A stretch of 64,000 bases of DNA from Limnochordales bacterium. Lineage in GTDB: Bacteria; Bacillota; Limnochordia; Limnochordales; ZCTH02-B6. This document shows, in pieces, positions 35,278 through 64,000 of the stretch (position 1 is the first letter of the stretch; each line of letters opens with the position of its first letter). The position numbers and the translations under genes are program-made. Under the pieces are notes generated by a model. It saw nothing but the letters and a program-made list of their open reading frames with translations, searched no databases and was not told the origin of the DNA. The stretch covers positions 6,773 to 70,772 of the forward strand of contig DATGPV010000050.1 of NCBI GenBank assembly GCA_035304545.1, in the 5' to 3' direction.

Positions 35278-36738
<1,461 letters not shown>

Positions 36739-41342: not shown

Positions 41343-41606
41343 ATGCGAGACTACATCCGGAAACGGGTGGTGGACGTCAGCCACTACATCGTGGAGTCCC
41401 GGGCCACGGTGCGCCAGGCGGCCGCCGTTTTCGGCGTCAGCAAAAGCACGGTCCACAAGGACGTCACCGAGCGGCTTCCTCGCGTCAGCAAAGATCTCGC
41501 CCGCAAGGTCAAGCGGATCCTGGACCTCAACAAGGCCGAGCGGCATATCCGCGGCGGCGAGGCGACGCGCCGGAAATACCGGAGCCACGGCCGCCGGGCT
41601 TCCTGA
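41343..41606 (+). CDS. spoIIID: Stage III sporulation protein D (mother-cell transcription factor)
   Basis: MRDYIRKRVVDVSHYIVESRATVRQAAAVFGVSKSTVHKDVTERLPRVSKDLARKVKRILDLNKAERHIRGGEATRRKY is collinear with B. subtilis SpoIIID. Confidence 0.93.
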   Translation: MRDYIRKRVVDVSHYIVESRATVRQAAAVFGVSKSTVHKDVTERLPRVSKDLARKVKRILDLNKAERHIRGGEATRRKYRSHGRRAS

Positions 41607-41792
41607 GCGGCCGCCCCTCCCGCAAGGGCGTCCCAGGGCAGCGCCGCCGGCCCCCGGCGGCGCCGCTCGTTCCTCCGAAAGCCCGCACGGCCGGCCGCCC
41701 CGGGCAGGAGTTGCACCGGGCCTGTCGAAAAACGTTGCCAGTACCTTCCGGACCGCGCCACGGACGGTTCGGACCGAGAGGGGCGGCCGCAG

Positions 41793-42806
41793 TTGTTCGG
41801 GCGGGATATCGGCATCGACATGGGCACGGCCAACGTGCTCATTTTCATGCGCGGCAAGGGCTTGGTGATGCAAGAACCTTCGGTCATCGCCGTGGATCAA
41901 GAGACGAACCGGGTGCTGGCCATCGGCGAGGAAGCCCGGCGCATGATCGGCCGCACCCCCGGCAACATCGTGGCCATCCGTCCCCTCAAGGCCGGTGTCA
42001 TCGCCGACTATACCATCACGGAAATCATGCTGAAGTACCTCATCCGCCGGGTCTTGGGCCGCCGGCCCCTGTGGCGGCCCCAGATCGCCGTGTGCGTGCC
42101 GTCGGGTGTCACCACCGTGGAGCAGCGGGCCGTCATCGAGGCGTGCATGCAGGCCGGTGCCAAGAAGGTGTGCGTCATCTCCGAGCCCATGGCCGCTGCC
42201 CTGGGCGCCGGTCTCAACATCGTGGATCCCGGCGGCAACATGGTGGTGGACATCGGCGGCGGCACCACCGACGTGGCCGTCATCTCCATGGGCGGCGAAG
42301 TGGTGGCCGACAGTCTGCGCCTAGGCGGCGATGACCTCGACGAGGCCATCATCCGCTACGTGCGCCGGGAGTTCAACCTGCTGGTGGGCGAGGCCACAGC
42401 GGAGGAGATCAAGCGCCGGTTGGGCTGCGTCTACGATCCCGACGAGAGCGTCACCATGGAAGTGCGGGGACGGGACACGGTGACCGGCCTGCCCAGGGCG
42501 GTAAGGCTGTCGGAGGTACAGGTCCATGAAGCCCTGCAGGAGCCCATTCAGGCCACTGTCAACATGATCCGCACTGTGCTGGAAAAAACCCCGCCGGAGC
42601 TGGCGGGGGACATTATCAGTCGGGGCATCGTGCTGACAGGCGGAGGCGCGCTCCTCAAGGGGCTGCCGGAGCTCATCCGCCTGGAAACGCGGGTGCCCGC
42701 CACCGTGGCCGACGATCCGCTCACCTGCGTGGCCCGGGGGACAGGCCGGGTGCTGGAGGAGATTCACCGCCTGCCCACGGACACGGGCTCCTTCCGCGTG
42801 TCGTGA
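41793..42806 (+). CDS. mreB: Rod-shape-determining actin homologue MreB/Mbl
   Basis: DIGIDMGTANVLIF, EPSVIAV, IRPLKAGVIADY, VVDIGGGTTDVAVIS, GIVLTGGGALLKGL. Confidence 0.96.
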   Translation: MFGRDIGIDMGTANVLIFMRGKGLVMQEPSVIAVDQETNRVLAIGEEARRMIGRTPGNIVAIRPLKAGVIADYTITEIMLKYLIRRVLGRRPLWRPQIAVCVPSGVTTVEQRAVIEACMQAGAKKVCVISEPMAAALGAGLNIVDPGGNMVVDIGGGTTDVAVISMGGEVVADSLRLGGDDLDEAIIRYVRREFNLLVGEATAEEIKRRLGCVYDPDESVTMEVRGRDTVTGLPRAVRLSEVQVHEALQEPIQATVNMIRTVLEKTPPELAGDIISRGIVLTGGGALLKGLPELIRLETRVPATVADDPLTCVARGTGRVLEEIHRLPTDTGSFRVS

Positions 42807-42949
42807 GCCGGGCAGGCGTGGTCCCGCCGGAGGGCTTCCGCCTGCTCTCGGAACCGCGCCATTCCTTCCTGCGTCCATTCGGTTTCCAGTTGGCCCAGGA
42901 GCTGCCCGCACCGGTAGCAGACGACGGGCCGCATTTCCTTGATGGTCAT
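42764..42949 (-). CDS. Hypothetical small Cys/His-rich protein (61 aa)
   Basis: MTIKEMRPVVCYRCGQLLGQLETEWTQEGMARFREQAEALRRDHACPAHDTRKE... GGGAGGGG RBS 6 nt before ATG 42949. Its 3' end overlaps the mreB 3' end by 43 nt (convergent). Confidence 0.5.
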   Translation of the reverse strand: MTIKEMRPVVCYRCGQLLGQLETEWTQEGMARFREQAEALRRDHACPAHDTRKEPVSVGRR

Positions 42950-43100
42950 CCACAACCCCTCCCTGTCTTCATTTTAGCGCACCCTGGTCTCCGACGGGCA
43001 GCCTGGCCCTCGTCCGCGGGACAAAACCGCTAAAGGTTTCTCCGCGGGCGGACGACGCAATCAGTAGAGCCGGGACACACCTGGCCGGGGAGGTGGCCCT

Positions 43101-43925
43101 GTGCTGCGGGGACTGTACACCAGCGCCTCAGGGATGTTGGCAGAGCAGGTGCGGGTTGATGTCCTGTCCCACAACTTGGCCAACGTGCAGACGGTGGGTT
43201 TCAAGCGTCAAGCCGTTCTGCAGTCGGCCTTTCCTGACATGCTGCTGCAGCGGGTCCACGACCCCGTTGTCCTGGGCGGCGCGCCGGCGGCCGCGGGCCG
43301 TCCAGGGGCGCGCGGCACGCAGGGCGGGGTGGGTTTCGCCTACGATCCCCGGCCCGTCATCGGGCGGCTGGGCACCGGCACCTACATTGACGGCACCTAT
43401 TCGGACATGACCGGGGGCACCCTGCGGCATACGGGCAACCCGCTGGATCTGGCCTTGGAGGGCAGCGGATTCTTTGCGGTGGAGACGCCTGCGGGCCTGC
43501 GCTACACCCGGGACGGGCGCTTTACCCTGGACGGGGAAGGCTGGCTGGTCACCGCCGAAGGTCACCGGGTGCTGGGGGAAGCCGGGCCTATCCAGATCCA
43601 GGGCACCGAGGTGCACGTTACCGAGGAGGGCGAGATCTGGGTCGACGGGGCGCCCGTCGCGGTGCTGGCCCTGCGGGATTTTCCCGAACCCCAAGGGCTT
43701 TTGCGGGAAGGAAGCAGCCTGTGGGCGGCCACCGAGGCGTCGGGGCCGGCCCAGCCGGCGGAGGCCCGGGTCCACGGGGGTTATTTGGAGGAGTCCAACG
43801 TCAACGTGGTCATGGCCATGGTGGAGCTCATCGCCGCGTACCGGGCCTACGAAGCCAACCAGCGGGTGATCCAGGCCTTTGACCAGACCTTGGGCAAGGC
43901 TGTGAACGAATTGGGACGGGTGTAG
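43101..43925 (+). CDS. flgF: Flagellar basal-body rod protein FlgF (FlhO position)
   Basis: MLRGLYTSASGMLAEQVRVDVLSHNLANVQTVGFKR N-terminus and GYLEESNVNVVMAMVELIAAYRAYEANQRVIQ C-terminus, the rod-protein signatures. Confidence 0.85.
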   Translation: MLRGLYTSASGMLAEQVRVDVLSHNLANVQTVGFKRQAVLQSAFPDMLLQRVHDPVVLGGAPAAAGRPGARGTQGGVGFAYDPRPVIGRLGTGTYIDGTYSDMTGGTLRHTGNPLDLALEGSGFFAVETPAGLRYTRDGRFTLDGEGWLVTAEGHRVLGEAGPIQIQGTEVHVTEEGEIWVDGAPVAVLALRDFPEPQGLLREGSSLWAATEASGPAQPAEARVHGGYLEESNVNVVMAMVELIAAYRAYEANQRVIQAFDQTLGKAVNELGRV

Positions 43926-44020
43926 CGAGGGGAAGCGGGAAGCCAACGGCGAAACGTGCGCCGGGCCCCTGACGGGGCCTGCCGGCGCCCAATTGGTCAG
44001 TACAAACGGAGGGAAAGCCC

Positions 44021-44809
44021 ATGATGCGTTCGCTCTGGACAGCCGCTTCGGGCATGTCCGCGCAGCAGTTCACCATCGACACCATCTCCAACAACCTGGC
44101 CAACGTGAACACCGCCGGCTTTAAGCGCAGCCGGGTTGACTTCCAGGACCTCCTCTACCAGACGCTGCGCTTCGCGGGCACGCCCACCACCCAGGGGGCG
44201 CAGATCCCGACGGGCATCCAGATGGGCCACGGAGTGCGGCCGGTGGCCACGCAAAAGATTTTCACCCAGGGCACCTTCAAGCAGACTGACAATCCCCTGG
44301 ACATCGTCATCGAGGGGCAGGGCTTTTTCCAAATCTTGCTGCCCGACGGCACCATCGCCTACACCCGCGACGGCGCCTTCAAGAAGGACGCCGAGGGCCG
44401 CATCGTTACGTCGGACGGCTTTCCCCTGGAGCCCGAAATTCTCATTCCCGAAGATGCGGTGGAAATCACCATCGGCAGCGACGGCACCGTGTCCGTCATG
44501 ATTTTGGGGCAGGAGAATCCCGAGAACATCGGCAATATCGAACTGGCCCGCTTCATCAACCCGGCGGGCTTAAGCAGCTTCGGGCGGAACCTGTTCTTGG
44601 CCACCGCCGCCAGCGGCCCGCCCATCATCGGCACGCCGGGTCTTGAGGGGTTTGGCATTGTGGCCCAGGGCTACCTGGAGCTGTCCAACGTCCAGGTGGT
44701 GGAGGAGATGGTGAACATGATCATCTCCCAGCGGGCCTACGAGTCCAACAGCAAGGCCATCCAGGCCTCCGACGACATGCTGCAGACGGCCAACAACTTG
44801 CGCCGGTAA
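44021..44809 (+). CDS. flgG: Flagellar basal-body distal rod protein FlgG (FlhP position)
   Basis: [85 protein letters not shown]. Confidence 0.93.
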
Positions 44810-44824
44810 AGGAAGTTTAGGCTG

Positions 44825-45820
44825 ATGCGACGCTTCGTCGCGGCTATCTTGGCGGCATGCATGTGGGCGGCGGCGGTGCCGGCCGCCGCCCATGGGTTGG
44901 GGGAGTGGCTGGCGGTGGTGCGGGTGCACCCGGAGCCGTCAGTCACCGGCCCCGACATTTTGCTGGGCGAGATCGCCGCGGTGGAAGCCGCGGATCCGGC
45001 TTTGGTGGAAGAACTGGCCCGCCTGCCGGTGGGCCGGGCGGCGCTGCCCGGCCACGCCCGGGAGCTGAGCGTGGGCACTGTGCGGGTGCGCCTCCGCCAT
45101 GCGGGCCTGCCGGAGCGGTTGATCCGCATCGACGCCCCCAGCCCGACCTTTCCCGTGCGGACGCGTTCGCAAATCGTTTCCGGTGCCGAACTGGCCGCCG
45201 CCGCGGAAGCCGCGGTTTGGGAACAGGTGGGCCGGTGGCAGCAGGAGCTGGGCGGCGGGTCCCTGGTGCTGGCCTGTCCCTCGGCCGACGACCTCTCCGT
45301 GCCGGCTGGAGAGGTGGAGCTGGCGGTGTCCCGGGTGACGGGGACGCCGCCCGGGTCGGTGCTGGCCACGGTCACCGTAGGCGTCGACGGAACGCCCCAT
45401 AAGAATGTGGTGGTCCGCTGCGAGGCCCGGTGGCAGATGGAAGTGTGGGTCGTCCAGCAGCTGGTGCGGCGCCACCAGGTGCTGGAAGGCGACGTGGTGG
45501 CCCTGGAGGTGCGGGAGTTCACCGCCCTGCCTCGGGGCCTGGTCCCCGCGACGGAGGACCCGGCGGAATGGCGGGCGGTCCGTCCCCTCACGCCGGGTAC
45601 GGTCCTGGCCGGAGGCGCCGTGGAGCGGGTGCCCTTGGTGTGGCAGGGACGGCCCGTGAGCATCGTGGCCCAGGCCGGCGGGGTCTGGGTGGGCGCCCCG
45701 GGCGTGGCCCTGCAAGACGGCCGCCTGGGCGATGTGGTGCGGGTGGAGAACGCCAGTTCAGGATTTGTGGTGCGGGCCCGGGTGGTGGGTCCCGATACGG
45801 TAGAGGCCCTGGTCCCGTAA
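44825..45820 (+). CDS. flgA: Flagellar P-ring assembly chaperone FlgA (SAF-domain protein, elongated)
   Basis: Signal peptide, then C-terminal VWQGRPVSIVAQAGGVWVGAPGVALQDGRLGDVVRVENASSGFVVRARVVGPDTVEA, typical of FlgA. The N-terminal half looks like a second related module. Confidence 0.75.
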   Translation: MRRFVAAILAACMWAAAVPAAAHGLGEWLAVVRVHPEPSVTGPDILLGEIAAVEAADPALVEELARLPVGRAALPGHARELSVGTVRVRLRHAGLPERLIRIDAPSPTFPVRTRSQIVSGAELAAAAEAAVWEQVGRWQQELGGGSLVLACPSADDLSVPAGEVELAVSRVTGTPPGSVLATVTVGVDGTPHKNVVVRCEARWQMEVWVVQQLVRRHQVLEGDVVALEVREFTALPRGLVPATEDPAEWRAVRPLTPGTVLAGGAVERVPLVWQGRPVSIVAQAGGVWVGAPGVALQDGRLGDVVRVENASSGFVVRARVVGPDTVEALVP

Positions 45821-45856
45821 GCCAAGGACGGGCCCGAGGGGAAAGGGTGAGGCAGT

Positions 45857-46456
45857 GTGGCACTGCGGTGGACGCCGGGTCGGGCGTGGGTAGCGGCGGC
45901 TTTGGTCCTGGCTGCAGCCGTGGGCGGCGTGGGGCCGGCGGCCGCCCAATCGTTGTGGAACGACGGCTACAGCCTGTACACCGACACGAAAGCCCGCCAG
46001 CCGGGGGACTTGGTGACCCTGATCATCGTGGAGCGGTCGCAGGCCACCAGCTCCACCACGACCCAGACGGGCAAGGACGCCTCGGTGGAATTTGGCCCGC
46101 TGCTGTGGGGCGGCTCGGTGCTCATCCCCGGCTTGGGCGTGGATGCGGGCGACAATTTCCGGGGCGGCGGCAGCACCACCCGGGGCGGCAGCCTCAACGC
46201 CCGCATGACGGCCCAGGTGGTGGATGTGCTGCCCAATGGCGTGCTCCGCATCGAAGGGCGGCAAACCATCATCGTCAACGGCGAAGAGCAGGTCATCGTG
46301 GTCAGCGGCCTGGTGCGGCCCCAGGACATCAAGCCCGACAACACGGTCTTGTCGACCTTTGTGGCCGACGCCACCATCACGTATCAAGGTACCGGCCCCA
46401 TTGGGGACAAGCAGCAGCCGGGCCTTTTGACCCGCCTGCTCAACTGGCTCTTTTAA
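45857..46456 (+). CDS. flgH: Flagellar L-ring protein FlgH (no lipobox cysteine)
   Basis: SLWNDGYSLYTDTKARQPGDLVTLIIVE, LNARMTAQVVDVLPNGVLRIEGRQ, VSGLVRPQDI, TRLLNWLF, the FlgH signature blocks. The protein has no Cys at all. Confidence 0.9.
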   Translation: MALRWTPGRAWVAAALVLAAAVGGVGPAAAQSLWNDGYSLYTDTKARQPGDLVTLIIVERSQATSSTTTQTGKDASVEFGPLLWGGSVLIPGLGVDAGDNFRGGGSTTRGGSLNARMTAQVVDVLPNGVLRIEGRQTIIVNGEEQVIVVSGLVRPQDIKPDNTVLSTFVADATITYQGTGPIGDKQQPGLLTRLLNWLF

Positions 46457-46496
46457 GTTGGCCGGCGCATGGGCGCGGGCGCAAGGCGAGGAGAGG

Positions 46497-47711
46497 ATGG
46501 GCGTGAGAGGACGGGCGAAGACAGCGCGCGGCGGGAAGGCGAAGGGCTTCTTGTGGGCGGCCGCGGTGGCCCTGGCGGCGCTGGGCGCGGCCTGGGCGCC
46601 GGTCCATGGGCAGGAGGCCGAGGGGCTCCGGCCAGCGGTGGTGGTCTCCGGGGAGACGTCCCATCAGCCGACGGTGCGCATCAAGGACATCGCGCGCTTT
46701 GATGGGGTGCGGGACAACCAGCTGTACGGCATGGGCCTTGTCATCGGCCTGGAGGGCACCGGCGACGGGCGGGGCAGCCAGGCCAACGTCCAGATGGTAG
46801 CCAACATGCTGGAGCGTTTCGGCATCACCGTGGACCGGAACTCGCTGCGGCTGCGCAACGTGGCGGCCGTGGTGGTGACGGCCGATCTGCCCGCCTTTGC
46901 TCGCCCCGGAGACCGCATCGACGTGACGGTGTCGTCCATTGGCGACGCCCGGAGTCTTCAGGGCGGGTTTCTGCTGCAGACGCCGCTGCAGGCCGCCGAC
47001 GGACAAGTGTACGCCGTGGCCCAGGGGCCGGTCTCCATCGGGGGCTTCAACGTGCGGGGCGGCGGCACCCAGGTGCAGCGCAACCACGCGGCGGTGGGCA
47101 TCGTGCCGGGGGGCGCCATTGTCGAGCGGTTCGTGCCCACTACGGTCGTGCACGACGGCTACATGACCCTTCTTCTTACCCATCCCGACTTTACCACCGC
47201 GGCCCGGGTGGCCGACGTGATCAACCGGGTGTTTACCCCGGGCACCGCGCAGGCCCTGGACCGCAGCGCCATTCGGCTGCAGCTGCCGCCGGCCTTTAGG
47301 GACCGGCCGGTGGAGTTCATGGCCGCGGTGGAAGAGCTGCCCGTCACCCCCGACGCGGTGGCCAAGGTTGTGATCAATGAGCGGACCGGCACCATCGTCA
47401 TGGGGCACCGGGCCCGCATCGCGTCGGTGGCCGTGGCCCATGGCGGCCTGCGAGTACGGGTGGAAACGCAGCCGCTGGTGGCCCTGCCTCCCTCCGAAGA
47501 TGAGGACGAAGCGGGGCCGGTGATGGTGGAGCAGACGACGGTCCAGGTGGAAGAAGAGCCGGCCCGGGTGGTGGTCTTGGAGAGCGGAGCAAGCGTCGAA
47601 GACGTGGTGCAGGCCCTAAACGCCATCGGCGCCACGCCCCGGGACATCATCGCCATCCTGCAGGCCATGAAGGCGGCGGGGGCCCTGTACGCCCAGCTGG
47701 AGATCTTGTAA
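46497..47711 (+). CDS. flgI: Flagellar P-ring protein FlgI
   Basis: RIKDIARFDGVRDNQLYGMGLVIGLEGTGD, VTADLPAFARPGDRIDVTVSSIGDARSLQGGFLLQTPL, DIIAILQAMKAAGALYAQLEIL. ATG 46497 after GAGGAGAGG. Confidence 0.93.
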   Translation: MGVRGRAKTARGGKAKGFLWAAAVALAALGAAWAPVHGQEAEGLRPAVVVSGETSHQPTVRIKDIARFDGVRDNQLYGMGLVIGLEGTGDGRGSQANVQMVANMLERFGITVDRNSLRLRNVAAVVVTADLPAFARPGDRIDVTVSSIGDARSLQGGFLLQTPLQAADGQVYAVAQGPVSIGGFNVRGGGTQVQRNHAAVGIVPGGAIVERFVPTTVVHDGYMTLLLTHPDFTTAARVADVINRVFTPGTAQALDRSAIRLQLPPAFRDRPVEFMAAVEELPVTPDAVAKVVINERTGTIVMGHRARIASVAVAHGGLRVRVETQPLVALPPSEDEDEAGPVMVEQTTVQVEEEPARVVVLESGASVEDVVQALNAIGATPRDIIAILQAMKAAGALYAQLEIL

Positions 47712-47751
47712 ACGGCGCCGCCACGCCCGGCGGGATCAGGAGGAATGCGGC

Positions 47752-48294
47752 ATGACGGAAGCCTTGAGGGGCACAGCCGGCGGTGCCGGCCTCGCGGCGG
47801 GCCAGGGCGCGGGGCCAACGCGGAAGGCCAATCCTGCCGGCGGATTCCAGGCGGCCTTGGATGCCGCGGTGGCGGCGGAGACGGGCAGTGGGGCGGCGCC
47901 GGTCCGGCCGGTGGCCGGGCCTTCCCGGGGCGCCGCGGGTCCGGCCGTTCCCAGGGGAGCCAGCGGAGGCAGCGGTTTCGCCTTTACTCCCAGTTGGGAT
48001 CTGCCCTCCAGCTCGGCGGGGGACGAAGCCCGGCTGCGCTGGGCCAGCGAGCAGCTGGAGGCGCTGTTTCTCGAGATGCTGTGGCGGGGCATGCGCCGCA
48101 CGGTGATGTCCACGGGCATGCTGGACGGCCCCGGGGTGCGCCTCTTTGAAGAGATGCTGGACCAGGAGCGGGCCCGGATGATGGCGGCCGCGGGCACGCT
48201 GGGCCTGGCGGAAATGGTGTACCAAGAGATGTCCCGCCACTTGCCCGGGTCCGGCGACGGGAGGACAACGGCGGGAGGAAGGGAAGATATGTAA
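47752..48294 (+). CDS. Rod-binding protein (FlgJ N-terminal-domain-like; no muramidase domain)
   Basis: EQLEALFLEMLWRGMRRTV...FEEMLDQERARMMA...LGLAEMVYQEM matches the Rod_binding domain pattern. Confidence 0.7.
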   Translation: MTEALRGTAGGAGLAAGQGAGPTRKANPAGGFQAALDAAVAAETGSGAAPVRPVAGPSRGAAGPAVPRGASGGSGFAFTPSWDLPSSSAGDEARLRWASEQLEALFLEMLWRGMRRTVMSTGMLDGPGVRLFEEMLDQERARMMAAAGTLGLAEMVYQEMSRHLPGSGDGRTTAGGREDM

Positions 48295-50660: not shown

Positions 50661-50717
50661 GGCAACGAACTGTGCAGCAGGCAACGGCCTGTGAGGCAGG
50701 CAACGCCCCCGAAGGGG
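50661..50717 (+). repeat. Tandem 19-nt repeat, about 2.5-3 copies (GGCAACGnnCTGTGnnGCA) in the bamA leader
   Basis: GGCAACG starts at 50661, 50680 and 50699, an exact 19-nt period: GGCAACGAACTGTGCAGCA / GGCAACGGCCTGTGAGGCA / GGCAACGCCCCCGAAGGGG. Confidence 0.7.
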
Positions 50718-50727
50718 GTCTTTTTTT
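50705..50727 (+). terminator. Terminator-like element (GCCCCC-GAA-GGGGGT hairpin + T7) 10 nt upstream of the bamA RBS
   Basis: Short all-GC stem followed by TTTTTTT at 50721-50727. AAAGGAGG RBS at 50738-50745. Confidence 0.5.
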
Positions 50728-55358: not shown

Positions 55359-56456
55359 TTGAGGCTGCAGTTGCTGGATCGCTATATCCTGCGGGAGTTC
55401 ATCGGGCCCTTCCTCGGCTGCGTGGCCGGTTTCTCCGTCATCTTGGTCAGCGGCCTGCTGTTTGAGCTGACGGACCTGATCCTGGTCAAGCGGGTGGAGG
55501 GGCAGGTGGTGCTGCGCATGTTGCTGTACCGCCTGCCGGGCCTCGTGGTCCTCGCGCTGCCCGTGGGGTCCTTGTTCGGCGTGCTGCTGGCCTTGGGGCG
55601 GCTGGCCCGGGACCATGAGCTGACCGTCATCCGGGGCGTCGGGGTGCCTTTTTGGCGCATCGCCATTGGCCTGGTGGCCGCCTGCCTCGCGGTGAGCGCG
55701 GCCGCCTATTGGCTCAACGAGCGGGTGGTGCCGTGGACGAATCACGCGTACCAGAACCTGGTCCGGCAGGCGGTGTTCAAGGACCCCGTGCCCACCGTCC
55801 AGGAGCAGGTCTTTTTCCGGGACGCCGACGGCAACGTCTTTTACGTGCGGCAGGTGGACACCGCCCAGTCACGGCTGGTGGACGTCATGATTTACCAGCC
55901 CGGCGGCCGCACCTTCCCCCGCCTCATCACCGCCCGGGAGGGCCTGTTCACCGAGCGCTTGTGGCACCTGCGGGACGTGGTGACCCGGGAGATCGGCGCC
56001 GACGGTTTCGTGGAGCGGGAAGTGTGGGCCGAGAGCCTGGCCTTTCCCATGACCGAGAGCACCGTGGAAGTTTTTGGCAACCAGCGCACCACCGACGAGA
56101 TGAACCGGGCGGAGCTGGCCGAGCACATCCGGCTGTTCCAGCGCAGCGGCATCGACGTGCGCCCGTTCCTCGTCGACTACCACGTCAAGCTGGCCCTGCC
56201 CTTTGCCAGCCTGGTGCTGGCCCTGTTTGCCGCCCCCTTGAGCCTGTGGGGGGGACGGCACGGCTGGGTGTTTGGGCTGGGAGCCAGCATCGGCCTGGCG
56301 TTCCTTTATTACACCTTGGCGGCGCTCTTCCGCTCCCTGGGCACCAACGGGGCGCTGCCGCCGCTGGTGGCCGCGTGGCTGGGCAACATCCTGTTTCTGG
56401 CCCTGGGCATCGTGCTGTTTGTGCGGGCCGACCGGGCGGGGCGGTCGCTGCTTTAG
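55359..56456 (+). CDS. LptF/LptG family LPS export permease (YjgP/YjgQ)
   Basis: LLDRYILREFIGPFLGCVAGFSVILV N-terminus, 3+3 TM helices around a periplasmic beta-jellyroll-sized insert, about 365 aa. Confidence 0.88.
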   Translation: MRLQLLDRYILREFIGPFLGCVAGFSVILVSGLLFELTDLILVKRVEGQVVLRMLLYRLPGLVVLALPVGSLFGVLLALGRLARDHELTVIRGVGVPFWRIAIGLVAACLAVSAAAYWLNERVVPWTNHAYQNLVRQAVFKDPVPTVQEQVFFRDADGNVFYVRQVDTAQSRLVDVMIYQPGGRTFPRLITAREGLFTERLWHLRDVVTREIGADGFVEREVWAESLAFPMTESTVEVFGNQRTTDEMNRAELAEHIRLFQRSGIDVRPFLVDYHVKLALPFASLVLALFAAPLSLWGGRHGWVFGLGASIGLAFLYYTLAALFRSLGTNGALPPLVAAWLGNILFLALGIVLFVRADRAGRSLL

Positions 56457-56496: not shown

Positions 56497-58650
56497 TTGA
56501 ATCCTTGGGCCCGGTGGGGCGCCGCCGCGCTGGCTTGGTGGGCGGTCCTGGCTCTGTCGGCCGGGGCCCTCGCGGCGGACCCGGTGTTGGTGCAGGCCGA
56601 CGGCATCAACTCTTGGGACGGCACGGGGCTGTTTACCGCGGTGGGCAACGTGACGCTGCGCTACCGCGACGCGGTCATCACCGCGGACGCCATGCGCTAC
56701 GACGCCGAGGCGGGGACGATCCTTTTTGAAGGCAACGTCGTTTACGTCGAAGGCCAACAGGAGCTGGCCGGCGCCCGGCTGCACTATGATCTCAACACGG
56801 CCACGGCGGTTTTTGAGGACTTGGACGCCATCGTCTACGCCCAAGGGGTCCAAGGGCCCATGTTTGTGCGGGGCCAGCGGGTGGAAAGCACCTCGGACGT
56901 GGTGGTCATCCAAGGGGGATTCCTGACCACCTGCGAGTGCCAGGAGGACCGGCCGCCGGCCTATCATTTCACCGCCCGGGAAATCGAGATATACCCGGGG
57001 GACCGTCTGGTGGTCCGCGGGGTCACCTTTTACGACCACGGGGTCCCCCTTTTGTACTTGCCTTGGCTCACCTTGTCCCTGCGGGAAGACCGCAACCACT
57101 TTGACCTGCCCCAGATCGGTTACAGCGAGCGCACCGGCTGGTACATCAAGACCGCGTACAACTACGTGCTGGCATCGGGCCTCTACGGCGCCATCCTCTT
57201 GGACTGGTACCAGTACCTGGGCTTTGGCGGGGGCGTGCGCCACACGTATCTGCACGACGGGTCGGGCCGGGGGACGGTGCTGGTCTACGGCGTCGCCAAT
57301 CGCAGCGGCGGCAGCGACGGCACCTTGGAGTGGGAGCGGGAATGGAACTTGGAGCGGTGGCGGCTGGCCACCCAACTGGGCTACGACGTGTCCACGGAGC
57401 CCGGCGGCGTGAACGAGGAAGAGATCCGGGGCGAGCTGCGTTTCGAGCAGACCGCGGGCCCCGGCGCGGCCCGGGGCGATCTGGAATACCGCATCGTCAC
57501 GGGAAAGGACCCCCTGGAGCGGTTTGCCGGCAGCGTCGAGCTGCGCCGCCCGGTGGGGGCCCAGTGGGAGTTTTACGGCCGGGCCGACGGCTTTGAGCAT
57601 GACAAGCCCGATGAGCCCTTGCGCCGCTGGCTCGGGTATACGGCGGAGCTGCGGCAAGCCACCGCGGACTACACGCTGTCCATCCGGGTGCACCAGCAGG
57701 TGCACCCCGACCTGCGGGACGAGAAGAAGAGCCCCAACGTCCCCTGGACCCACGTGAGCCGCCTGCCCGAGATCACCTTGGAAACCCGGGCGGTGGCTGG
57801 GATCAGCCTGCGCGCGGGCGTGGCGCGCCTCAAGGAAGAGCCCGACGGCATCGCCGCCTGGCGGGGCGAGGCCCAGGCGCGGGCCCGCCGCAGCTGGCCG
57901 GTGGGCCAGCGGGCCGTGCTCACCTCCAGCACGTCGCTGCTGGGCCAGCTCTACAGCACTGAGGATCGGCAGCTGTCCTTCGAAAGCCGGACAGGGTTCA
58001 ACTGGCAGTTTTCCCAGCCCATGGGCCTGACGCTGCAGCACACCTATCGGGAGGCCTGGGGCCACTCGCCTTTCCGCTTTGACCGGGTGTCCCCGGCGTC
58101 TACGTTGGCGGGCCGCCTCAACTGGCGCAGCGCGGCCTTGACGGCCACCCTCAGCACCAGCTACGACCTGCTGGACCAAGAGTGGAATCCCCTCACCATC
58201 AGCGGCATCGCCCGCCTGAGCGCCAACGCGAGCCTGCGGGCGGCCGCCCAGTACGAGACGGCCGTCCGCCGCTGGCAGCGGGTGGCCGCGACCTTGGACT
58301 GGCAGCCGGCCGAGGGATGGCTGGTGCGGCTGGGCGGGCAGTACGACGTGCCGACGGCCCAGATGGAGCGCGTGGACGTCCAGTGGGAGTGGTCGGTGCG
58401 GGGGGGCTGGAAGGGCGGCCTCACCACCATCTACCACCCCGCCAATCAGACTTTCACCCGCCTGGAGGTATTTTTTGCCCACGACGCGGAGTGCCGGGAA
58501 ATCCGGTTGAGCTACGATCACGAGAGGCGGGAAGTTTGGCTCCAGTACCAGATCGCGGCCTTCCCGCTGAGCCGGGTGGCGGTGGGCGCATCCGAGGACA
58601 AGCTCTTGTTTGAGTCCGACGCCTTGTCGGAGTTCCTGGGGATCGAGTGA
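56497..58650 (+). CDS. lptD: LPS-assembly outer membrane protein LptD (OstA family)
   Basis: Signal peptide, OstA N-domain (GNVTLRYRDAVITADAMRYDAEAGTILFEGNV), then FLTTCEC...AYHFTAREIEIYPGDRLVVRGVTFYDHGVPLLYLPWL, typical of LptD, then a large barrel. Start at TTG 56497; the upstream part of ORF 56272 overlaps the lptF/G gene. Confidence 0.8.
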   Translation: MNPWARWGAAALAWWAVLALSAGALAADPVLVQADGINSWDGTGLFTAVGNVTLRYRDAVITADAMRYDAEAGTILFEGNVVYVEGQQELAGARLHYDLNTATAVFEDLDAIVYAQGVQGPMFVRGQRVESTSDVVVIQGGFLTTCECQEDRPPAYHFTAREIEIYPGDRLVVRGVTFYDHGVPLLYLPWLTLSLREDRNHFDLPQIGYSERTGWYIKTAYNYVLASGLYGAILLDWYQYLGFGGGVRHTYLHDGSGRGTVLVYGVANRSGGSDGTLEWEREWNLERWRLATQLGYDVSTEPGGVNEEEIRGELRFEQTAGPGAARGDLEYRIVTGKDPLERFAGSVELRRPVGAQWEFYGRADGFEHDKPDEPLRRWLGYTAELRQATADYTLSIRVHQQVHPDLRDEKKSPNVPWTHVSRLPEITLETRAVAGISLRAGVARLKEEPDGIAAWRGEAQARARRSWPVGQRAVLTSSTSLLGQLYSTEDRQLSFESRTGFNWQFSQPMGLTLQHTYREAWGHSPFRFDRVSPASTLAGRLNWRSAALTATLSTSYDLLDQEWNPLTISGIARLSANASLRAAAQYETAVRRWQRVAATLDWQPAEGWLVRLGGQYDVPTAQMERVDVQWEWSVRGGWKGGLTTIYHPANQTFTRLEVFFAHDAECREIRLSYDHERREVWLQYQIAAFPLSRVAVGASEDKLLFESDALSEFLGIE

Positions 58651-58704
58651 GGCGCCGCGAACCCGTTCGCCAGGGCGACGGAGGAGTTGCACCCCGTGGG
58701 GTCC

Positions 58705-59388
58705 ATGCAGGCACGCAACAGACGCTGGGTGATGGTACTGCTTTTGGCCGCCGCCGGGGCCGCCGGGATCTGGCTGGCCCGCCGGGCCGGCGGGCCGGCT
58801 GAGGCGCCGGTGCCCGTGGTGGAAGACACGCGCCCGCAGCTCACGTCCACCCGCGTCGTGGGGCGGCACCAGGGAGACCGCCAGTTCGAGTTGGAAGCCG
58901 GCGCCATCGCCGACGAGGGCGACTGGATCCGCCTGGACGCGATTGAACACGGCGTGCTCTACCGGGAAGGGGAAACGTATGTGACGTTCACGGCCCGGGA
59001 GGGCCGCTGGCACCGGCCGTCCAACGATCTTGTCCTGACCGGGGACGTGGTCCTGGTGTACGAAGGCCGCATCCGCGTCTTCAGCGACCGGCTGGAGTGG
59101 CGGGCCGAGAATGAGCTGGTGGTGTCCCCGGGACCGGTGGTGCTGGAGACCGAAGACGACGTGGTCCGGGCCGCGGCCATGGAGGCGGACCTGGGTCAGG
59201 AGGTGGTGCGCCTGCAGGGGGATGTGCGCATCGAGCGGGCCGGGGGCGGCTACATCATGATGCCGGAGGTTTTGTACTACTTGGAGGAAGAGCGGCTGGA
59301 AGGCTACGGGCCCGGGCAAGCGCTGCTTTTGCCCGGCGGACCAGCCGGCGGCGGGCCGGCGGACGGCGACCCGGCGGCCGGCCGGTAG
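58705..59388 (+). CDS. lptC: LptC-like membrane-anchored LPS transport protein
   Basis: N-terminal TM anchor (WVMVLLLAAAGAAGIWLA) followed by an OstA-like beta-jellyroll-type sequence (LTGDVVLVYEGRIRVFSDRLEWRAENELVVSPGPVVLE). Lies between lptD and lptA. Confidence 0.6.
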   Translation: MQARNRRWVMVLLLAAAGAAGIWLARRAGGPAEAPVPVVEDTRPQLTSTRVVGRHQGDRQFELEAGAIADEGDWIRLDAIEHGVLYREGETYVTFTAREGRWHRPSNDLVLTGDVVLVYEGRIRVFSDRLEWRAENELVVSPGPVVLETEDDVVRAAAMEADLGQEVVRLQGDVRIERAGGGYIMMPEVLYYLEEERLEGYGPGQALLLPGGPAGGGPADGDPAAGR

Positions 59389-59433
59389 ACAGGCGATGGG
59401 CTCCATGGGCCCCGCAGGGAGGGTGTGCAAACG

Positions 59434-60135
59434 GTGGCAACCAGGTGGCGCAAGGCGTGGGGTCCCGTGCTGGTGGCGGTCCTTTTGTGGGCAGCGGCCG
59501 CCGGCCTGGCGCAGGCGCAGGGCGCGAGCGAGAAAGCGGGGGAAACCGGCGGCTCGCGGGAACCGGTCTTCCTGGACATTTTGGATGAGGACGCCCTGCT
59601 CTTGGTGACCCGCAGCGAGGGGCGGGATGTGGTGCGGGTCCTGGGCCGCAGCCAGGTGCGGCACAAGCGGCGCACCGTGTGGTTCGACCAGATGGAATAC
59701 CATGAAGACGCGAACTGGGCTGTCCTCACGGGCGCGGTGCAGCTCGTGGACGAGGGCGAAGATCCGCTGCACCTGACTGCGGATTACATGGAGCTGGACC
59801 TGGACTCGGAAACTGCTTTCGCGCGGGGCAACGTGCAGTTTGTCCAGGAAGCAGCCGAGGGCAGCTCCGACGTGCTCCACTACGGCGAGTACAGCCGCCT
59901 GCAGCCGTTCATACAGGAGGAGCTGGCGGCCCGCCAGGCCGCGCCCGCGGCGCTGGAGGCGGCCCTGGCCCAGTTCCGGCCCGATGATGCGGTCTTGATC
60001 CTTATCGGCAACGTGCAGATGTACGACGGCGACCGGGAGTTTGCCGCCGAGTTCGTCGTGTACAACATCCGCACGGAATCCCTCGTGTCGGTGGGCCGCA
60101 GCGCCGCCCGGCTGCCCGGGCCCCAGGACGACTAA
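59434..60135 (+). CDS. lptA: LptA-like periplasmic LPS transport protein (OstA N-terminal domain)
   Basis: Cleavable signal (AVLLWAAAAGLAQAQG), LTGAVQLVDEGEDPLHLTADYMELDLDSETAFARGNVQFV. Start GTG 59434 (better RBS spacing) or 59425. Confidence 0.65.
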   Translation: MATRWRKAWGPVLVAVLLWAAAAGLAQAQGASEKAGETGGSREPVFLDILDEDALLLVTRSEGRDVVRVLGRSQVRHKRRTVWFDQMEYHEDANWAVLTGAVQLVDEGEDPLHLTADYMELDLDSETAFARGNVQFVQEAAEGSSDVLHYGEYSRLQPFIQEELAARQAAPAALEAALAQFRPDDAVLILIGNVQMYDGDREFAAEFVVYNIRTESLVSVGRSAARLPGPQDD

Positions 60136-60145
60136 CGGCCGACGA

Positions 60146-60354: not shown

Positions 60355-62529
60355 ATGTCCCTGTTTCGCGACGCCTTTTGGCGGGAATATGCCTTGGTGG
60401 TGCTGATGACCATCCTGCTGGGCGCGGGCGGCGCCGCTGCCGGGGCCAGCGCGTTGGACGCGGCCTTGGGCGACGCGGCCCGGGGCCTTTTGGGAGAAGC
60501 CGGCCAGTACCACCTCATCGTGCACGTGCGCCAGGGCTACCGGGCAGCCGCCGCCCGGGAACTGGAGCGGCTCATGGCCGCCCACGGGCCCGCCGCCGTC
60601 CTCCACGAGGGGGTTACCGTGGCCGGCAACGCCAACTTTTTCCTGGCCCTGCCCCCGGAACAGGTGCGCCAACCGGTGCTGGAGGAGCTGGTGGCCCGGC
60701 TGGGGGAAGTGCCTGGCTTCAACGGCTACACGTGGCTCCTGGAGCCGAGCCTGACCGTGAGCGGCCTGCGGCCGGGCGTGCAGGCGCTGGTGGCCCGGGA
60801 GGCCGCAGCCTTGGCGGGCGTCCGCCTGGCGGTGCGCCACGGGTCCAGCGTGACGGTGCTGTTGGAGAGCCTAAACCACCAGCGGCCGGTGGCGGCCGCT
60901 CTCAAAGCCCTGGTGGAAGGGCGCCAAGTGGCCGAAGTGCGCTGGCCCGGCCGCGGGGAAGGGGACCCGGCCTCCGTGGTGGCCGCGGTCCGGGCCGCCC
61001 TGGGCCCGGAGTTTCTCGCCGATGTGACGTCTCCCGACGAGGCGGGGGAAACGCGGCAAGCCCTGGCGGCCTTGCGGGACTGGCTGGCGGGGCTGGCGGC
61101 CCGGGTGCAAGTCACGCCGGGGCCCGGGGCATCCCCGCTGGCGGCCGGGGAACGGGTGGTGCTGCAAGGCCCGGCTCCCGCGCCGCCGGAGCCCGGTCAG
61201 CCTCCGGAACCGCAGCATCTCATCGTGGAGATGGCGGCCGCGGAAGACGGGGAGTTGGTGGGCCGCATCGTCCACGGCGATTTTCCCCCGCCCGGGGCTG
61301 AGCCCGGGAACGGGGCCGAAGGTGAGCTCGGTCAAGGGGGCCTTGGGGCTGGTGCCCGGCCGGCGGGCACGGCCTTTCGCCTGGTGGACGGGGTCGTGGG
61401 GCCGCCGGTGGGTGAAGCCGTGCTGGTCAGTCCCCGCTGGGCCTTGGCCGCCGGCGGCGGGCCGGATCCGGCGGCCGGACAGTCGTGGGACCAGTTGGTG
61501 CAGGCCGCCCGGGAGGCCGCGGAGCAGCTGGCGGCCGTGGTGGACCTGTTGGCGCCGGCCGCCGCCAGCGCCGACACGGGCCAGCAGGCCCAGCGGCTGG
61601 CCCGCGCGCTGCGGGCCGGCGACGGCGCGTCCGCGGTGCGGGAGGCGCTGTTGGGAGTGGTCCTCACGGCTCTGCTGCGGGCCGGGCAGGCAAGCGGTGA
61701 CGATCCTGGGGTGGAGCCGGCGGAGGCGGGCCATCCGGCGGGCGGCGACGGTGCCGGCGACCGGGCCGGTGTTGCGGCGCAGCTGGCGGCGCTGCACCAG
61801 AGCCTGACCCGGCTGGCGGAAGCCGCCGAGGGGCTCCAGGAGGCCGCGGGCCAGGGGGGCTTGGCGGCCGTCTTTGACATCCAGGGCCGGCTTCTGCAGC
61901 TGCGGGACGATGAGCTCACGCGCCTGTGGCAGGCGGTGGAAGGGGCCGCCGGGGGACCCGCCGCGGGACAGCGGGTGGAGCTCCTGGTGAGCGGGAGCGT
62001 GCCCGCGGCCCGGCTGGAGCAGGTGGTGCGGCAAGCGGCCGGCGAGGAGGCGGTGGTGATCATCACCGCCGCGGGCGTCGTCGCGCCCAGCCCCCGCGCC
62101 TTGGTGCTGGAGCTGCTCCAGGATGTGCGCCGGTCCGTCGCAGGTTTGGGGGCCTTGCTGGCAGCCGCGGCGGCCCTGGTGCTGGACCACGCTACGGTGC
62201 TGGCGGCCCTGGGCCGGTTGGGCTGCTCCCGGCGGGCAGTGGCCGCCGTGGGCGCGGGCTTGGGCGTCCTGCTGCTGGGCGGCATCTACGGCTTGAGCGG
62301 TGCCGCGATCCCGGGGGCCGGGCCGGGGGTGGTGGCGGCGGCCGGCGCCGGGCTGGGCGTGGCCGTCGCGCTGTTGGCCGAGCGGCTGAGTCCCGTCCGG
62401 CCCGACGAAATCATGGCGGGCCAGGCCCTCGGCCTTTCCGACGGTCAGATCTTGCGGGAGATCGTGGTGCCCGTGGGCCGGCCGGGGCTTTTGTCCCTGG
62501 TCAACCGCTGGCGGCGGCAATTCCGGTGA
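60355..62529 (+). CDS. Unknown 724-aa membrane protein: N-terminal TM, about 560-aa Ala/Gly/Glu/Leu-rich ectodomain, 3 C-terminal TMs and C-terminal EAA-type ABC coupling motif
   Basis: TM1 is ALVVLMTILLGAGGAAAGA. The C-terminal block from residue 594 has three hydrophobic helices, then DEIMAGQALGLSDGQILREIVVPVGRPGLLSLVN. That segment matches the EAA loop of polar-amino-acid ABC permeases (EAAxALGxSxxQxFxxVxLPxAxRxxLPxLxN). The protein stops 6 residues after the motif, so the usual last two TMs are absent. Confidence 0.6.
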   Translation: MSLFRDAFWREYALVVLMTILLGAGGAAAGASALDAALGDAARGLLGEAGQYHLIVHVRQGYRAAAARELERLMAAHGPAAVLHEGVTVAGNANFFLALPPEQVRQPVLEELVARLGEVPGFNGYTWLLEPSLTVSGLRPGVQALVAREAAALAGVRLAVRHGSSVTVLLESLNHQRPVAAALKALVEGRQVAEVRWPGRGEGDPASVVAAVRAALGPEFLADVTSPDEAGETRQALAALRDWLAGLAARVQVTPGPGASPLAAGERVVLQGPAPAPPEPGQPPEPQHLIVEMAAAEDGELVGRIVHGDFPPPGAEPGNGAEGELGQGGLGAGARPAGTAFRLVDGVVGPPVGEAVLVSPRWALAAGGGPDPAAGQSWDQLVQAAREAAEQLAAVVDLLAPAAASADTGQQAQRLARALRAGDGASAVREALLGVVLTALLRAGQASGDDPGVEPAEAGHPAGGDGAGDRAGVAAQLAALHQSLTRLAEAAEGLQEAAGQGGLAAVFDIQGRLLQLRDDELTRLWQAVEGAAGGPAAGQRVELLVSGSVPAARLEQVVRQAAGEEAVVIITAAGVVAPSPRALVLELLQDVRRSVAGLGALLAAAAALVLDHATVLAALGRLGCSRRAVAAVGAGLGVLLLGGIYGLSGAAIPGAGPGVVAAAGAGLGVAVALLAERLSPVRPDEIMAGQALGLSDGQILREIVVPVGRPGLLSLVNRWRRQFR

Positions 62530-62548
62530 GGAGTCGGGGAGGCAGGCC

Positions 62549-63280
62549 GTGCTGCTGCACGTGGATCGGGTTCAGAAACGCTACGGGCCGCGGGTGGCCT
62601 TGGCCGGGGTGAGCCTCACCGTCGCGCCCGGCGAGACCGTGGTGGTCATGGGCCCCAGCGGGTGCGGCAAGTCGACGCTCTTGCGCTGCATCAACCGCCT
62701 CACGGACTGGGACGCGGGCGAGATCTACTTCGCCGGGAAACCCATCGGGCCCATGGACGGCGCGGCGGTGCGGGCCCTGCGCCGCCAAATGGGCTTTGTG
62801 TTTCAGCATTTCCACCTCATCGAACGCCTCACCGTGTTGGACAACGTCCTCCTGGGCCTTGTCCTGGGCGGCATGCCCCGGGACGAGGCCGAGGAGCGGG
62901 CCCGGGCCGCTTTGGCCCGGGTGCACCTCGCGGGCGAGGAGGCGCGGCGGCCCGCGGAGCTGTCAGGCGGGCAGCGCCAGCGGGTGGCCATTGCCCGCGC
63001 CCTCGCGCTGGACCCGCCCCTCATGCTGTGGGATGAGCCCACCGCCGCCCTGGATCCCATCCTGGTGGCGGAAGTGCTGGAGGTCATGGAAGATCTGGCC
63101 CGCAGCAAGAGCACCGGCATGCTGGTGGTGACCCACGAGGTGGGGTTCGCGCTGCGGGCCGCGGACCGGGTGGTGCTCCTGGAGGAGGGCGCCGTGGTGG
63201 ACGAAGGCCCGCCTGAACAGGTCTTCGGCCGGCCCAGGACCGCCCTGGCCCAGCGCTACGCGCGCCTATTGGCGTCCTAA
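62549..63280 (+). CDS. ABC transporter ATP-binding protein, polar-amino-acid (GlnQ/HisP/ArtP)-type
   Basis: GPSGCGKSTLLRCINRL Walker A, FVFQHFHLIERLTVLDNV Q-loop, LSGGQRQRVAIARAL, LMLWDEPTAALDP, VVTHEVGFA. All catalytic motifs are intact. It lacks the LptB-type motifs GPNGAGKTT / LSGGERRR / DHN. Confidence 0.93.
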   Translation: MLLHVDRVQKRYGPRVALAGVSLTVAPGETVVVMGPSGCGKSTLLRCINRLTDWDAGEIYFAGKPIGPMDGAAVRALRRQMGFVFQHFHLIERLTVLDNVLLGLVLGGMPRDEAEERARAALARVHLAGEEARRPAELSGGQRQRVAIARALALDPPLMLWDEPTAALDPILVAEVLEVMEDLARSKSTGMLVVTHEVGFALRAADRVVLLEEGAVVDEGPPEQVFGRPRTALAQRYARLLAS

Positions 63281-63399
63281 AGGGCGGGCCCGCCCTCAGG
63301 GTGCGCGGCTCGCCGGCCGCGGGCGGCGGTGCCCAGGTCCGGCGGCCAAGAGGGAAAGGGGGCCTGAGGGCGAACCTGTTCCCGGAAGGAGCGTGCCCC

Positions 63400-64000
63400 A
63401 TGGCGTGGCAGACCACCCTGGGCAAGCCGGTTTCCTTGACGGGGACGGGGCTGCACAGCGGCAAGCCCTGCCGCCTGACGCTGCAGCCGGCGCCAGCGGG
63501 GACAGGGCTCGTCTGGCAGCGGGTGGATTTGGACGGCTGGCCCCAGATCCCGGCCACCGTGGACCACGTGGCCGGCACCGAACGGGCGACCACCCTGGCC
63601 CAGGGCGAGGCCCGGGTGCAGACGGTGGAACACGTCTTGGCGGCCTTGGCCGGCATGGGCGTGGACAACGCCGTGCTGCAGGTAGATGCTGCCGAGCCTC
63701 CCTTGGCCGATGGGGCCGCCGCGGCCTTCGTGGACCTGGTGCGGGAGGCGGGCGTGGTGGCGCTGGACGTGCCCCGGCGGGTGCGGCGGGTGACCCGCCC
63801 GGTGGCGGTTTCCCGGGGTGACGCCCACATCGTGGCCTTGCCCGCGGATCGGCTGCGGATTGCCAGCGTCTTCGTCTCGGACCACCCGGCCTTGGGGACC
63901 CAGTTTGCCGAGTACACCATAGATGCCGACACCTTTGCCGCGGAGATCGCGCCGGCCCGCACCGTGGGCTGGCTGGAGGAAGTGGAGGCCCTGCGGCGGC
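63400..64000 (+). CDS. lpxC: UDP-3-O-acyl-N-acetylglucosamine deacetylase (5' part; continues past window end)
   Basis: Own translation from ATG 63400: MAWQTTLGKPVSLTGTGLHSGKPCRLTLQPAPAGTGLVWQRVDL...TVEHVLAALAGMGVDNAVLQVDAAEPPLADGAAAAFVDLV, collinear with the LpxC N-domain. GGAAGGAG RBS. Not in the ORF track (no stop in window). Confidence 0.93.
   Translation, partial: MAWQTTLGKPVSLTGTGLHSGKPCRLTLQPAPAGTGLVWQRVDLDGWPQIPATVDHVAGTERATTLAQGEARVQTVEHVLAALAGMGVDNAVLQVDAAEPPLADGAAAAFVDLVREAGVVALDVPRRVRRVTRPVAVSRGDAHIVALPADRLRIASVFVSDHPALGTQFAEYTIDADTFAAEIAPARTVGWLEEVEALRR

Follow-up and report, generated by a model that had tools for sequence, protein, structure and literature searches.

What does it mean that a genome whose ATP synthase, sporulation and flagellar rod genes follow the order known from Bacillus subtilis continues, with the very next gene, into a block for building an outer membrane (OM)? 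The question is raised by a window of 64,000 nucleotides, positions 6,773-70,772 of contig DATGPV010000050.1, from the metagenome-assembled genome (MAG) of a Limnochordales bacterium, GCA_035304545.1. A first-pass annotation, made from the letters alone, had described the OM genes as grafted onto a Bacillus-type backbone, with the window switching in content where flgG meets flgA near 44.8 kb. We conclude instead, with a probability of roughly 85%, that the region is the chromosomal OM cluster of the Limnochordales bacterium, inherited vertically and not inserted into such a backbone.

The window is about 70% guanine plus cytosine (GC) and spurious frames crowd its raw list of open reading frames (ORFs). 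Genes were picked by third-position GC and then checked against Pfam and NCBIfam. The cluster and its left border are made up as follows, with expectation (E) values from the profile searches:

41343-41606, + strand: spoIIID (PF12116 matched on the identical gene of contig L001; NCBI name SpoIIID).
41820-42806, + strand: mbl/mreB paralogue (MreB_Mbl, E = 7.5e-140).
43101-43925, + strand: flgF, distal rod (Flg_bb_rod, LlgE_F_G_D1 and Flg_bbr_C domains).
44021-44809, + strand: flgG, distal rod (the same three domains).
44825-47711, + strand: flgA (P-ring chaperone; ChapFlgA, 1e-22), flgH (L ring; FlgH, 2.7e-52) and flgI (P ring; FlgI, 1.9e-133).
47752-48294, + strand: flgJ-like rod-binding protein (Rod-binding, E = 7e-12).
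48324-50447, + strand: secreted S55-type serine protease homologue of 707 aa (partial Peptidase_S55 match).
50756-54166, + strand: bamA (570 aa; Omp85 and POTRA, TIGR03303 at 240 bits), skp (OmpH) and lpxD (LpxD and Hexapep).
54564-55283, + strand: secreted protein of 239 aa, candidate small OM beta-barrel (sub-threshold YjbH match, to an N-terminal motif, E = 3e-4).
55371-56456, + strand: single lptF/G permease (LptF_LptG, E = 1e-90; below both the LptG and LptF equivalog cut-offs).
56497-58650, + strand: lptD, beta-jellyroll and large barrel (NCBIfam LptD N-terminal match, E = 7.6e-12).
58696-60135, + strand: lptC and lptA (TIGR04409 above cut-off; LptA/OstA matches weak).
60355-62529, + strand: membrane protein of 724 aa, between lptA and the ATPase.
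62549-63280, + strand: ATP-binding cassette (ABC) ATPase, partner of the 724-aa protein.
63400-64000, + strand: lpxC, cut by the window end (LpxC, E = 8.7e-60; the full gene encodes 281 aa in ENA contig L003).

Each gene named in the first-pass annotation was found near the place it gave. It had left unnamed the flgJ-like gene that sits between flgI and bamA, in which Pfam detected no hydrolase domain, and it mentioned neither the 724-aa protein nor the ATPase.

The guess that the DNA came from a Limnochordia-like lineage was borne out. The NCBI entries HLT58583, HLT58608, HLT58611 and HLT58626, all labelled 'Limnochordales bacterium', match PrfA, SpoIIID, FlgG and the ABC ATPase, respectively, at 100% identity. 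When one genome per species was scanned, MAGs ZCTH02-B6, ZC4RG06 and GB_MAG17_124 gave the nearest FlgG proteins, at 90-92% identity; Limnochordales/Limnochordia MAGs came next at 77%. DNA that is 99.93-99.99% identical is present in three Logan assemblies, in a metagenome contig at ENA and in a MAG contig at NCBI. The host is a member of the Bacillota with a Firmicute-type backbone and sporulation genes (spoIIID, an M23 SpoIIQ-like gene, spmA/B, a SpoVD-type penicillin-binding protein (PBP), codY and the prfA…atp order), and the description of the region as the OM cluster of a diderm Firmicute bearing sporulation genes is upheld. Limnochorda pilosa is itself reckoned a spore-former, with the clostridial form of SpoIIQ. 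According to PMC11456536, a diderm wall has been seen by electron microscopy in the cultured Limnochordia Geochorda and Carboxydochorda, and Taib et al. (2020) reported the OM cluster from every one of the 46 Limnochordia genomes in their analysis. Going by that summary, the cluster in the window is the same kind of cluster from the same class; calling these clusters the least studied was fair, although their presence in the whole set had already been reported there.

We found no discontinuity where the two gene sets meet. The genes flgF, G, A, H, I and J form an unbroken series at 43101-48294 in which neighbours are 15-95 nt apart, and flgA starts 15 nt past the flgG stop codon. Convincing intergenic terminator-like hairpins on the + strand occur only at 50705-50719, after the S55 gene, and at 54206-54222, after lpxD. 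The flgG-flgA boundary thus apparently lies within one operon running from flgF to the S55 gene, and the likely transcription units are flgFGAHIJ-S55, bamA-skp-lpxD and an lpt/lpx unit. Composition was equally uniform: tetranucleotide profiles to the left and right of 44.8 kb correlate at r = 0.992 with no 4-kb window deviating, so that k-mer continuity across 43-45 kb, which had been proposed as a check, shows no break. GC stays at 0.66-0.71 over 42-48 kb, and GC skew is positive nearly throughout the window.

These observations bear first on whether the sequence might be an assembly or binning chimera, with contigs of a Gram-negative and of a Firmicute wrongly fused near 44.8 kb. The source is a MAG, and contig L001 fails to align with the window over its first 340 nt, although that break falls at 38.1 kb in the PBP gene and not at the junction. 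The uniform composition and the 15-nt flgG-flgA gap speak against a join. The junction is also crossed by ENA contig L001 (99.96%) and by NCBI contig L002 (99.94%); they differ from the window by a few single-nucleotide polymorphisms and so are separate assemblies, from other samples. The same order recurs in more than 10 other genomes, from three classes. We consider the chimera effectively refuted and give it next to no credence.

The recurrence of the order also carries the argument for inheritance. In six Limnochordia-type loci we found spoIIID-mbl-flgFG-flgAHIJ-S55(-bamA-skp-lpxD). In Fuchsiella (Halanaerobiales) the order is atpD-atpC-DUF1694-spoIID-M23-spoIIID-flgFG-flgAHIJ-S55-tamB, and in a Sporomusaceae MAG it is atpD-atpC-murA-mbl-flgFG-flgAHIJ-(two genes)-S55-mlaE-mlaF-mlaD; the shared left flank and order were also seen in MAGs labelled Veillonellaceae. 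The left border of atp, spoIIID and/or mbl, flgFG, flgAHIJ and S55 is thus common to three diderm classes, and in the window it appears to lie inside an operon. A synteny of mbl-spoIID-spoIIID-murA has been inferred to be ancestral in Firmicutes (Garcia et al., 2021, PMC8136486). Because the cluster occupies the same chromosomal position in the other two diderm Firmicute lineages we favour vertical inheritance, and because that position is shared by three separately branching classes an ancestral arrangement fits better than an insertion. Together with the 15-nt gap and the absence of a change in composition, the order shared with Halanaerobiales and Negativicutes speaks against describing the block as grafted or the window as switching.

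A shared position would also be expected if the whole block had passed between Firmicute lineages long ago, by homologous recombination guided by the atp/spoIIID/mbl/flgFG flank, without being inherited from a diderm Firmicute ancestor. The deep nodes of our trees, described below, do not settle the order of the lineages, and to the right of S55 the content varies by class, with bamA in the window, tamB in Fuchsiella and mlaEFD in the Sporomusaceae MAG; both points suit such a transfer. Set against it are the published trees of concatenated LpxABCD, which support vertical inheritance (PMC5007114), and the identities to the other classes, which are low and alike for flank and ring genes, with no jump in similarity at the boundary. 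Against Negativicutes loci these are 57% for Mbl, 39-41% for FlgF, 28-29% for FlgA, 41-42% for FlgH, 51-53% for FlgI and 35-39% for the S55 protein. We consider an ancient exchange of this kind unlikely.

Functions otherwise foreign to most Firmicutes could also have arrived by a recent horizontal transfer in which a Proteobacterium, or some other classical Gram-negative, donated the OM block. Once the Limnochordia-type MAGs are set aside, FlgG matches Desulfobacterota at 66-68% and Negativicutes at 63-64%, a nearly equal similarity that would suit such a transfer. Neighbour-joining trees of FlgI, FlgH and FlgG were built with 200 bootstraps. It can be seen from these that the window groups with ZCTH02-B6, ZC4RG06 and GB_MAG17 with support of 0.985-1.0, that other Limnochordia/Bacillota MAGs come next, and that the window never falls inside Desulfobacterota, Nitrospirota or the other sampled phyla. 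The single-gene trees proposed for telling descent from transfer therefore show, for flgH and flgI, no nesting in the sampled Gram-negative phyla, with support of 0.04-0.4 at the deep nodes. GC, skew and k-mer profile are not shifted in the block, LptD, BamA and LptF/G have diverged strongly from their equivalogs in Proteobacteria, the position is common to two other Firmicute classes, and the LpxI route with a single LptF/G is the pattern of diderm Firmicutes (PMC5007114). We regard a recent transfer as very improbable.

Vertical inheritance of the cluster also fits what has been published on it. Antunes et al. (2016) described in Negativicutes and Halanaerobiales a large OM locus with a six-gene flgF/G/A/H/I/J set, the LpxI route, a single LptF/G and BamA-Skp-TamB (PMC5007114). 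Like that locus, the cluster described here, followed past the window end, is large and co-directional and has flgFGAHIJ, bamA-skp, lpxI rather than lpxH and fabZ beside lpxC; its lptF/G is likewise single, and lptC and lptA supply two proteins with OstA domains. A left flank of atp followed by spoIIID and/or mbl, and an S55-type gene after flgJ, are likewise common to the window and to the Negativicutes and Halanaerobiales loci. The cluster described here differs from them in having no tamB before bamA and no mla, ompM, lptB, kds, waaA, msbA or lpxK in the roughly 73.5 kb seen. It also differs in having a class-specific membrane protein and an importer-type ATPase after lptA, and in its GC content of about 70%; it also clearly has an lptD, a gene that the 2016 study did not find in Negativicutes and Halanaerobiales (PMC5007114). 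The adjacency of flgF/G and flgA/H/I/J in both of those groups was already on record, as was the proposal of an excision of flgAHI in monoderms (PMC5007114), so that the junction is no new information. The cluster type is a published one (Antunes 2016; Taib 2020), and the window is one more Limnochordales example of it without a new principle. The newest open reading concerns the class-specific ABC pair and a gene fusion described below, not the flgG/flgA junction.

Monoderms such as B. subtilis keep the flanks of the block, with atp … spoIIID-mbl-flhO-flhP and fabZ close by. In B. subtilis, fabZ presumably lies close to flhP and about 35 extra genes presumably stand between atpC and spoIIID, and we take the atp…flhP region there to be without flgAHI, bamA, lpx and lpt genes. 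The order atp…spoIIID-mbl-flhO-flhP is the same backbone order as in the window, flhO and flhP being rod genes of the flgF/flgG type in an operon of their own (PMC5540618). Such retained flanks fit a deletion of the block in monoderms. Because the left border is shared by three diderm classes and apparently lies inside an operon, we favour the published view of loss in monoderms over gain.

Several points weigh against vertical inheritance from a diderm ancestor. In a group of MAGs labelled 'Bacillota' (L016-L026), flgFGAHIJ occurs, but spoIIID, mbl, S55 and bamA were not detected in its vicinity; in L021 (6494-19956), the sole annotated locus among them, folD and a Mur ligase gene lie upstream and flgM-flgN-flgK-flgL downstream. 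The position of the junction is thus kept in three recognised diderm classes but is not universal. The deep nodes of the neighbour-joining trees have support of only 0.04-0.4, so that the trees exclude recent transfer from the sampled Gram-negative phyla without proving a single Firmicute clade; they cover FlgG, FlgH and FlgI, and their sampling is biased to the 80 best FlgG matches. The comparison with monoderms rests on general background and published papers, not on sequence examined here. Finally, the sequence at hand lacks a number of the canonical OM genes.

Judged from the families present, the cluster would work as three units. The first, flgF-flgG-flgA-flgH-flgI-flgJ-S55, would provide the distal rod, the P and L rings through peptidoglycan and OM, and a secreted S55-type protease. 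The second, bamA-skp-lpxD, would serve the insertion of beta-barrel proteins and the start of lipid A acylation. The third would comprise the small OM protein candidate, lptF/G, lptD, lptC, lptA, the class-specific ABC pair, lpxC, a nucleotidyltransferase gene, fabZ, lpxA, lpxI, lpxB and an LpxB-like gene, and would make lipid A disaccharide by the LpxI route and supply the Lpt bridge and translocon. The locus provides an inventory, gene by gene, for a class that has been little studied; notably absent from it are tamB, lptB, ompM and the genes for 3-deoxy-D-manno-oct-2-ulosonic acid (Kdo). It offers leads on a minimal OM-building toolkit in the class-specific ABC pair after lptA, the LptF/G-LptD fusion of a relative and the S55 protease, permuted in its motifs and linked with bamA and the genes of the flagellar rings.

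The S55 gene had been counted among the sporulation genes as a SpoIVB-like protease, and this did not hold. The gene sits inside the OM block, and its match to the S55 profile is limited to residues 48-114. Against TIGR02860 (SpoIVB) it scores 30 bits with a cut-off of 305, profile positions 313-380 alone being matched. In the window protein the Ser motif (residues 91-96) is N-terminal to the His motif (270-273). The order in SpoIVB is the reverse, with the His motif before the Ser motif. The family is large, with 997 detectable homologues in Limnochordia and Negativicutes, and the GMSGSP and FGH motifs are invariant in 119 sequences of it. An S55-type gene comes after flgJ in three classes (window 48324-50447; L037 14139-16061; L047 15782-17602). 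We rejected a SpoIVB orthologue on the score, the order of the motifs and the position after flgJ; the gene is a component of the OM/flagellar cluster and no evidence of sporulation. Its homologue in Acetonema longum, the S55-domain protein F7NM31, co-purified with BamA (PMC13018214), and in the window the S55 gene lies immediately upstream of bamA.

As in A. longum (PMC13018214), there is BamA without BamB-E, LptD without LptE (no lptE was detected in the cluster) and a single LptF/G. BamA and the single LptF/G score under the NCBIfam equivalog cut-offs; the BamA barrel begins near residue 290, consistent with a short protein that would have three POTRA domains as in Acetonema. The sonB-bamA-sonA-skp1 layout of Negativicutes is not seen in the window, where skp follows bamA directly. 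Several micro-syntenies of Escherichia coli are kept in the cluster (bamA-skp-lpxD, lptC-lptA and fabZ-lpxA-(lpxI)-lpxB), although, unlike in E. coli, the lpt genes and lpxC intervene between lpxD and fabZ.

LptD was detected weakly by Pfam and sequence profiles. Canonical LptD proteins, gammaproteobacterial and other, align at 26-30% identity over 21-31% of the query. An AlphaFold model built with 26 homologues (predicted local distance difference test score, pLDDT, 82.7) has strands at 31-194 followed by a barrel at 206-686. The best 36 Foldseek matches of this model in the PDB are all LptD (E 1e-25 to 5e-8, template-modelling score <= 0.58). The predicted fold thus confirms the gene at 56497-58650 as lptD.

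The 239-aa protein encoded between lpxD and lptF/G ends in ...YGIHF, that is, in a C-terminal Phe. The gene is present in the close relatives L007-L009 and L013 and absent in L087, where lpxD runs directly into lptF/G. With the sub-threshold YjbH match and the C-terminal Phe as its features, the beta-barrel OM protein proposed earlier remains a candidate, and may be a small outer-membrane barrel.

Past the window end the cluster continues for about 9.5 kb with lpxC, a sugar-phosphate nucleotidyltransferase gene, fabZ, lpxA, lpxI and lpxB, and then with genes for an LpxB-like protein of 413 aa, a 'lipid-A-disaccharide synthase-related' protein (TIGR03492) and a GT2 glycosyltransferase (L003 15990-19353). 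A convergent gene of the yheC/D type comes next, and the OM block from flgA to its right end spans about 28.5 kb. No tamB, mla, lptB, msbA, lpxK, waaA or kds gene was seen in the roughly 73.5 kb available, and profiling of genes across most of the window, like the gene calls downstream of it, turned up no OmpM or SLH-porin. LptB, TamB, OmpM, Mla, MsbA, LpxK and the Kdo genes must therefore lie elsewhere in the genome or be absent, and because these genes are missing here the canonical OM set is split or reduced at this locus. OmpM is probably encoded elsewhere in the genome; in the relative L091 an SLH-domain protein lies near LptB. That lpxK, waaA and kds were not seen raises the question of how the lipid A core is made up in this lineage.

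In E. coli lptA is followed by lptB. In the window it is followed by the 724-aa membrane protein and an ATPase of the GlnQ/MetN type. A gene of the 724-aa type stands right after lptA, followed by an ATPase gene of the same type, in 6/6 contexts, including the window, L087, L089, L091, L092 and L093, and in one NCBI MAG (P0255/L093) the membrane protein and the ATPase are fused at this position into a single 996-aa protein. All the catalytic motifs of the ATPase are intact (Walker A, Q-loop, signature, Walker B and H-loop), and its best NCBIfam matches are GlnQ (230 bits), TcyN, EhuA, PhnC and MetN. We rejected its identification as LptB, as TIGR04406 is absent from its 25 best families and the protein is of importer type. 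In the relatives L091 and L092 a separate ABC ATPase gene lies beside a DUF3084 gene, and that of L091 is a bona fide LptB (340 bits with TIGR04406).

The 724-aa protein matches no Pfam or NCBIfam family. A word-indexed search returned 10 homologues, the named ones coming from Limnochordales or Bacillota MAGs, and a profile search of 1.84 billion cluster representatives found 205. Its AlphaFold model (pLDDT 82) comprises a long transmembrane (TM) helix, about 530 extracytoplasmic residues (alpha/beta, beta and coiled), three TM helices and short C-terminal helices, and a Foldseek search with it gave no PDB fold match (best E = 0.03, to ACT/ferredoxin-like domains only). The C-terminal module matches, weakly but consistently, the EAA region of type I importer permeases: 19/24 members match BPD_transp_1 (best E = 5e-5), and the best PDB sequence matches of the module are MetI, an amino-acid permease and PotC. 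A permease of the MacB/LolC/FtsX type (type VII) was considered for its similar topology and rejected, as Foldseek found no PDB match, the only signal was to the EAA loops of type I importers, and the cytoplasmic loop between TM2 and TM3 is too short for the major coupling helix.

We infer that the 724-aa protein is a truncated importer-type permease, apparently of the MetI type and cut short just behind the EAA coupling helix, that has kept this helix and gained a large periplasmic domain, and that with the ATPase it would form a device that is powered by ATP and works in the periplasm. As the pair is always found at the same place in the lpt operon, it may help to deliver lipopolysaccharide (LPS) or another OM component. 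It is possible, though somewhat short of an even bet, that the pair is an envelope machine not described before, driven by ATP and integrated into the Lpt operon, and that, with the LptF/G-LptD fusion, it points to a different arrangement of trans-envelope export. If this were true, export of LPS or OM lipids in Limnochordia would use a physically different trans-envelope layout.

The fusion itself was seen in a relative in which LptF/G and LptD form one ORF of 1127 aa (L089 3393-6776; L090 2520-5903); what was the signal sequence of LptD now serves as the TM helix that links the two parts. It is present in two independent assemblies that differ by two residues. The product, if intact, would be a single chain spanning from the inner to the outer membrane, and our literature search found no paper describing such a fusion.

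To the left of the cluster border the window carries the following genes:

14197-15312, - strand: spmB/spmA, sporulation genes.
Between spmB/spmA and prfA (19865): codY, hflX and DUF1385 (Pfam/NCBIfam check).
19865-29526, + strand: prfA, prmC, sua5/ywlC, a PIG-L deacetylase gene, a ywlE-type low-molecular-weight phosphatase gene, rpiB, upp, a GT4 transferase gene and a wecB/mnaA epimerase gene (Pfam).
29591-37256, + strand: F1Fo ATP synthase operon atpZ-I-B-E-F-H-A-G-D-C (Pfam; 10/10 ORFs match).
37669-39375, - strand: SpoVD/FtsI-type class B PBP of 569 aa (PBP_dimer and Transpeptidase domains).
39683-40351, + strand: protein of 222 aa at the YwmB position (called as a gene in L001).
40351-41220, + strand: M23-domain protein, SpoIIQ-like (Peptidase_M23, E = 9e-14).

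Profile searches confirmed the backbone order given in the first-pass annotation, prfA-prmC-ywlC-ywlE-rpiB-upp, atpZIBEFHAGDC, the SpoIIQ-like gene, spoIIID, mbl, flgF and flgG, the match for atpI being weak (E = 5e-4, Pfam). Of the calls between the atp operon and spoIIID, the SpoIIQ-like one was supported by the M23 domain, and an M23 gene stands at the equivalent position in Fuchsiella; the assignment of the 222-aa ORF to the YwmB family was not, as it gave no Pfam match.

The PBP domains are confined to the last approximately 520 residues of a 1214-aa ORF reaching to 41313, and the gene call on ENA contig L001 ends correspondingly. We attribute the over-extension to 1214 aa to the rarity of stop codons in DNA of about 73% GC. 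The false extension (37669-41313, - strand) overlaps two genes of the opposite strand, the one at the YwmB position and the SpoIIQ-like one. The 340 unaligned nucleotides at the start of L001 correspond to about 37746-38085 of the window, inside this PBP gene, and are either a contig-end artefact or strain variation. Further upstream, a GT4 transferase of the WecA/TagO type and a UDP-GlcNAc 2-epimerase are encoded at 27194-29526, between upp and the atp operon.

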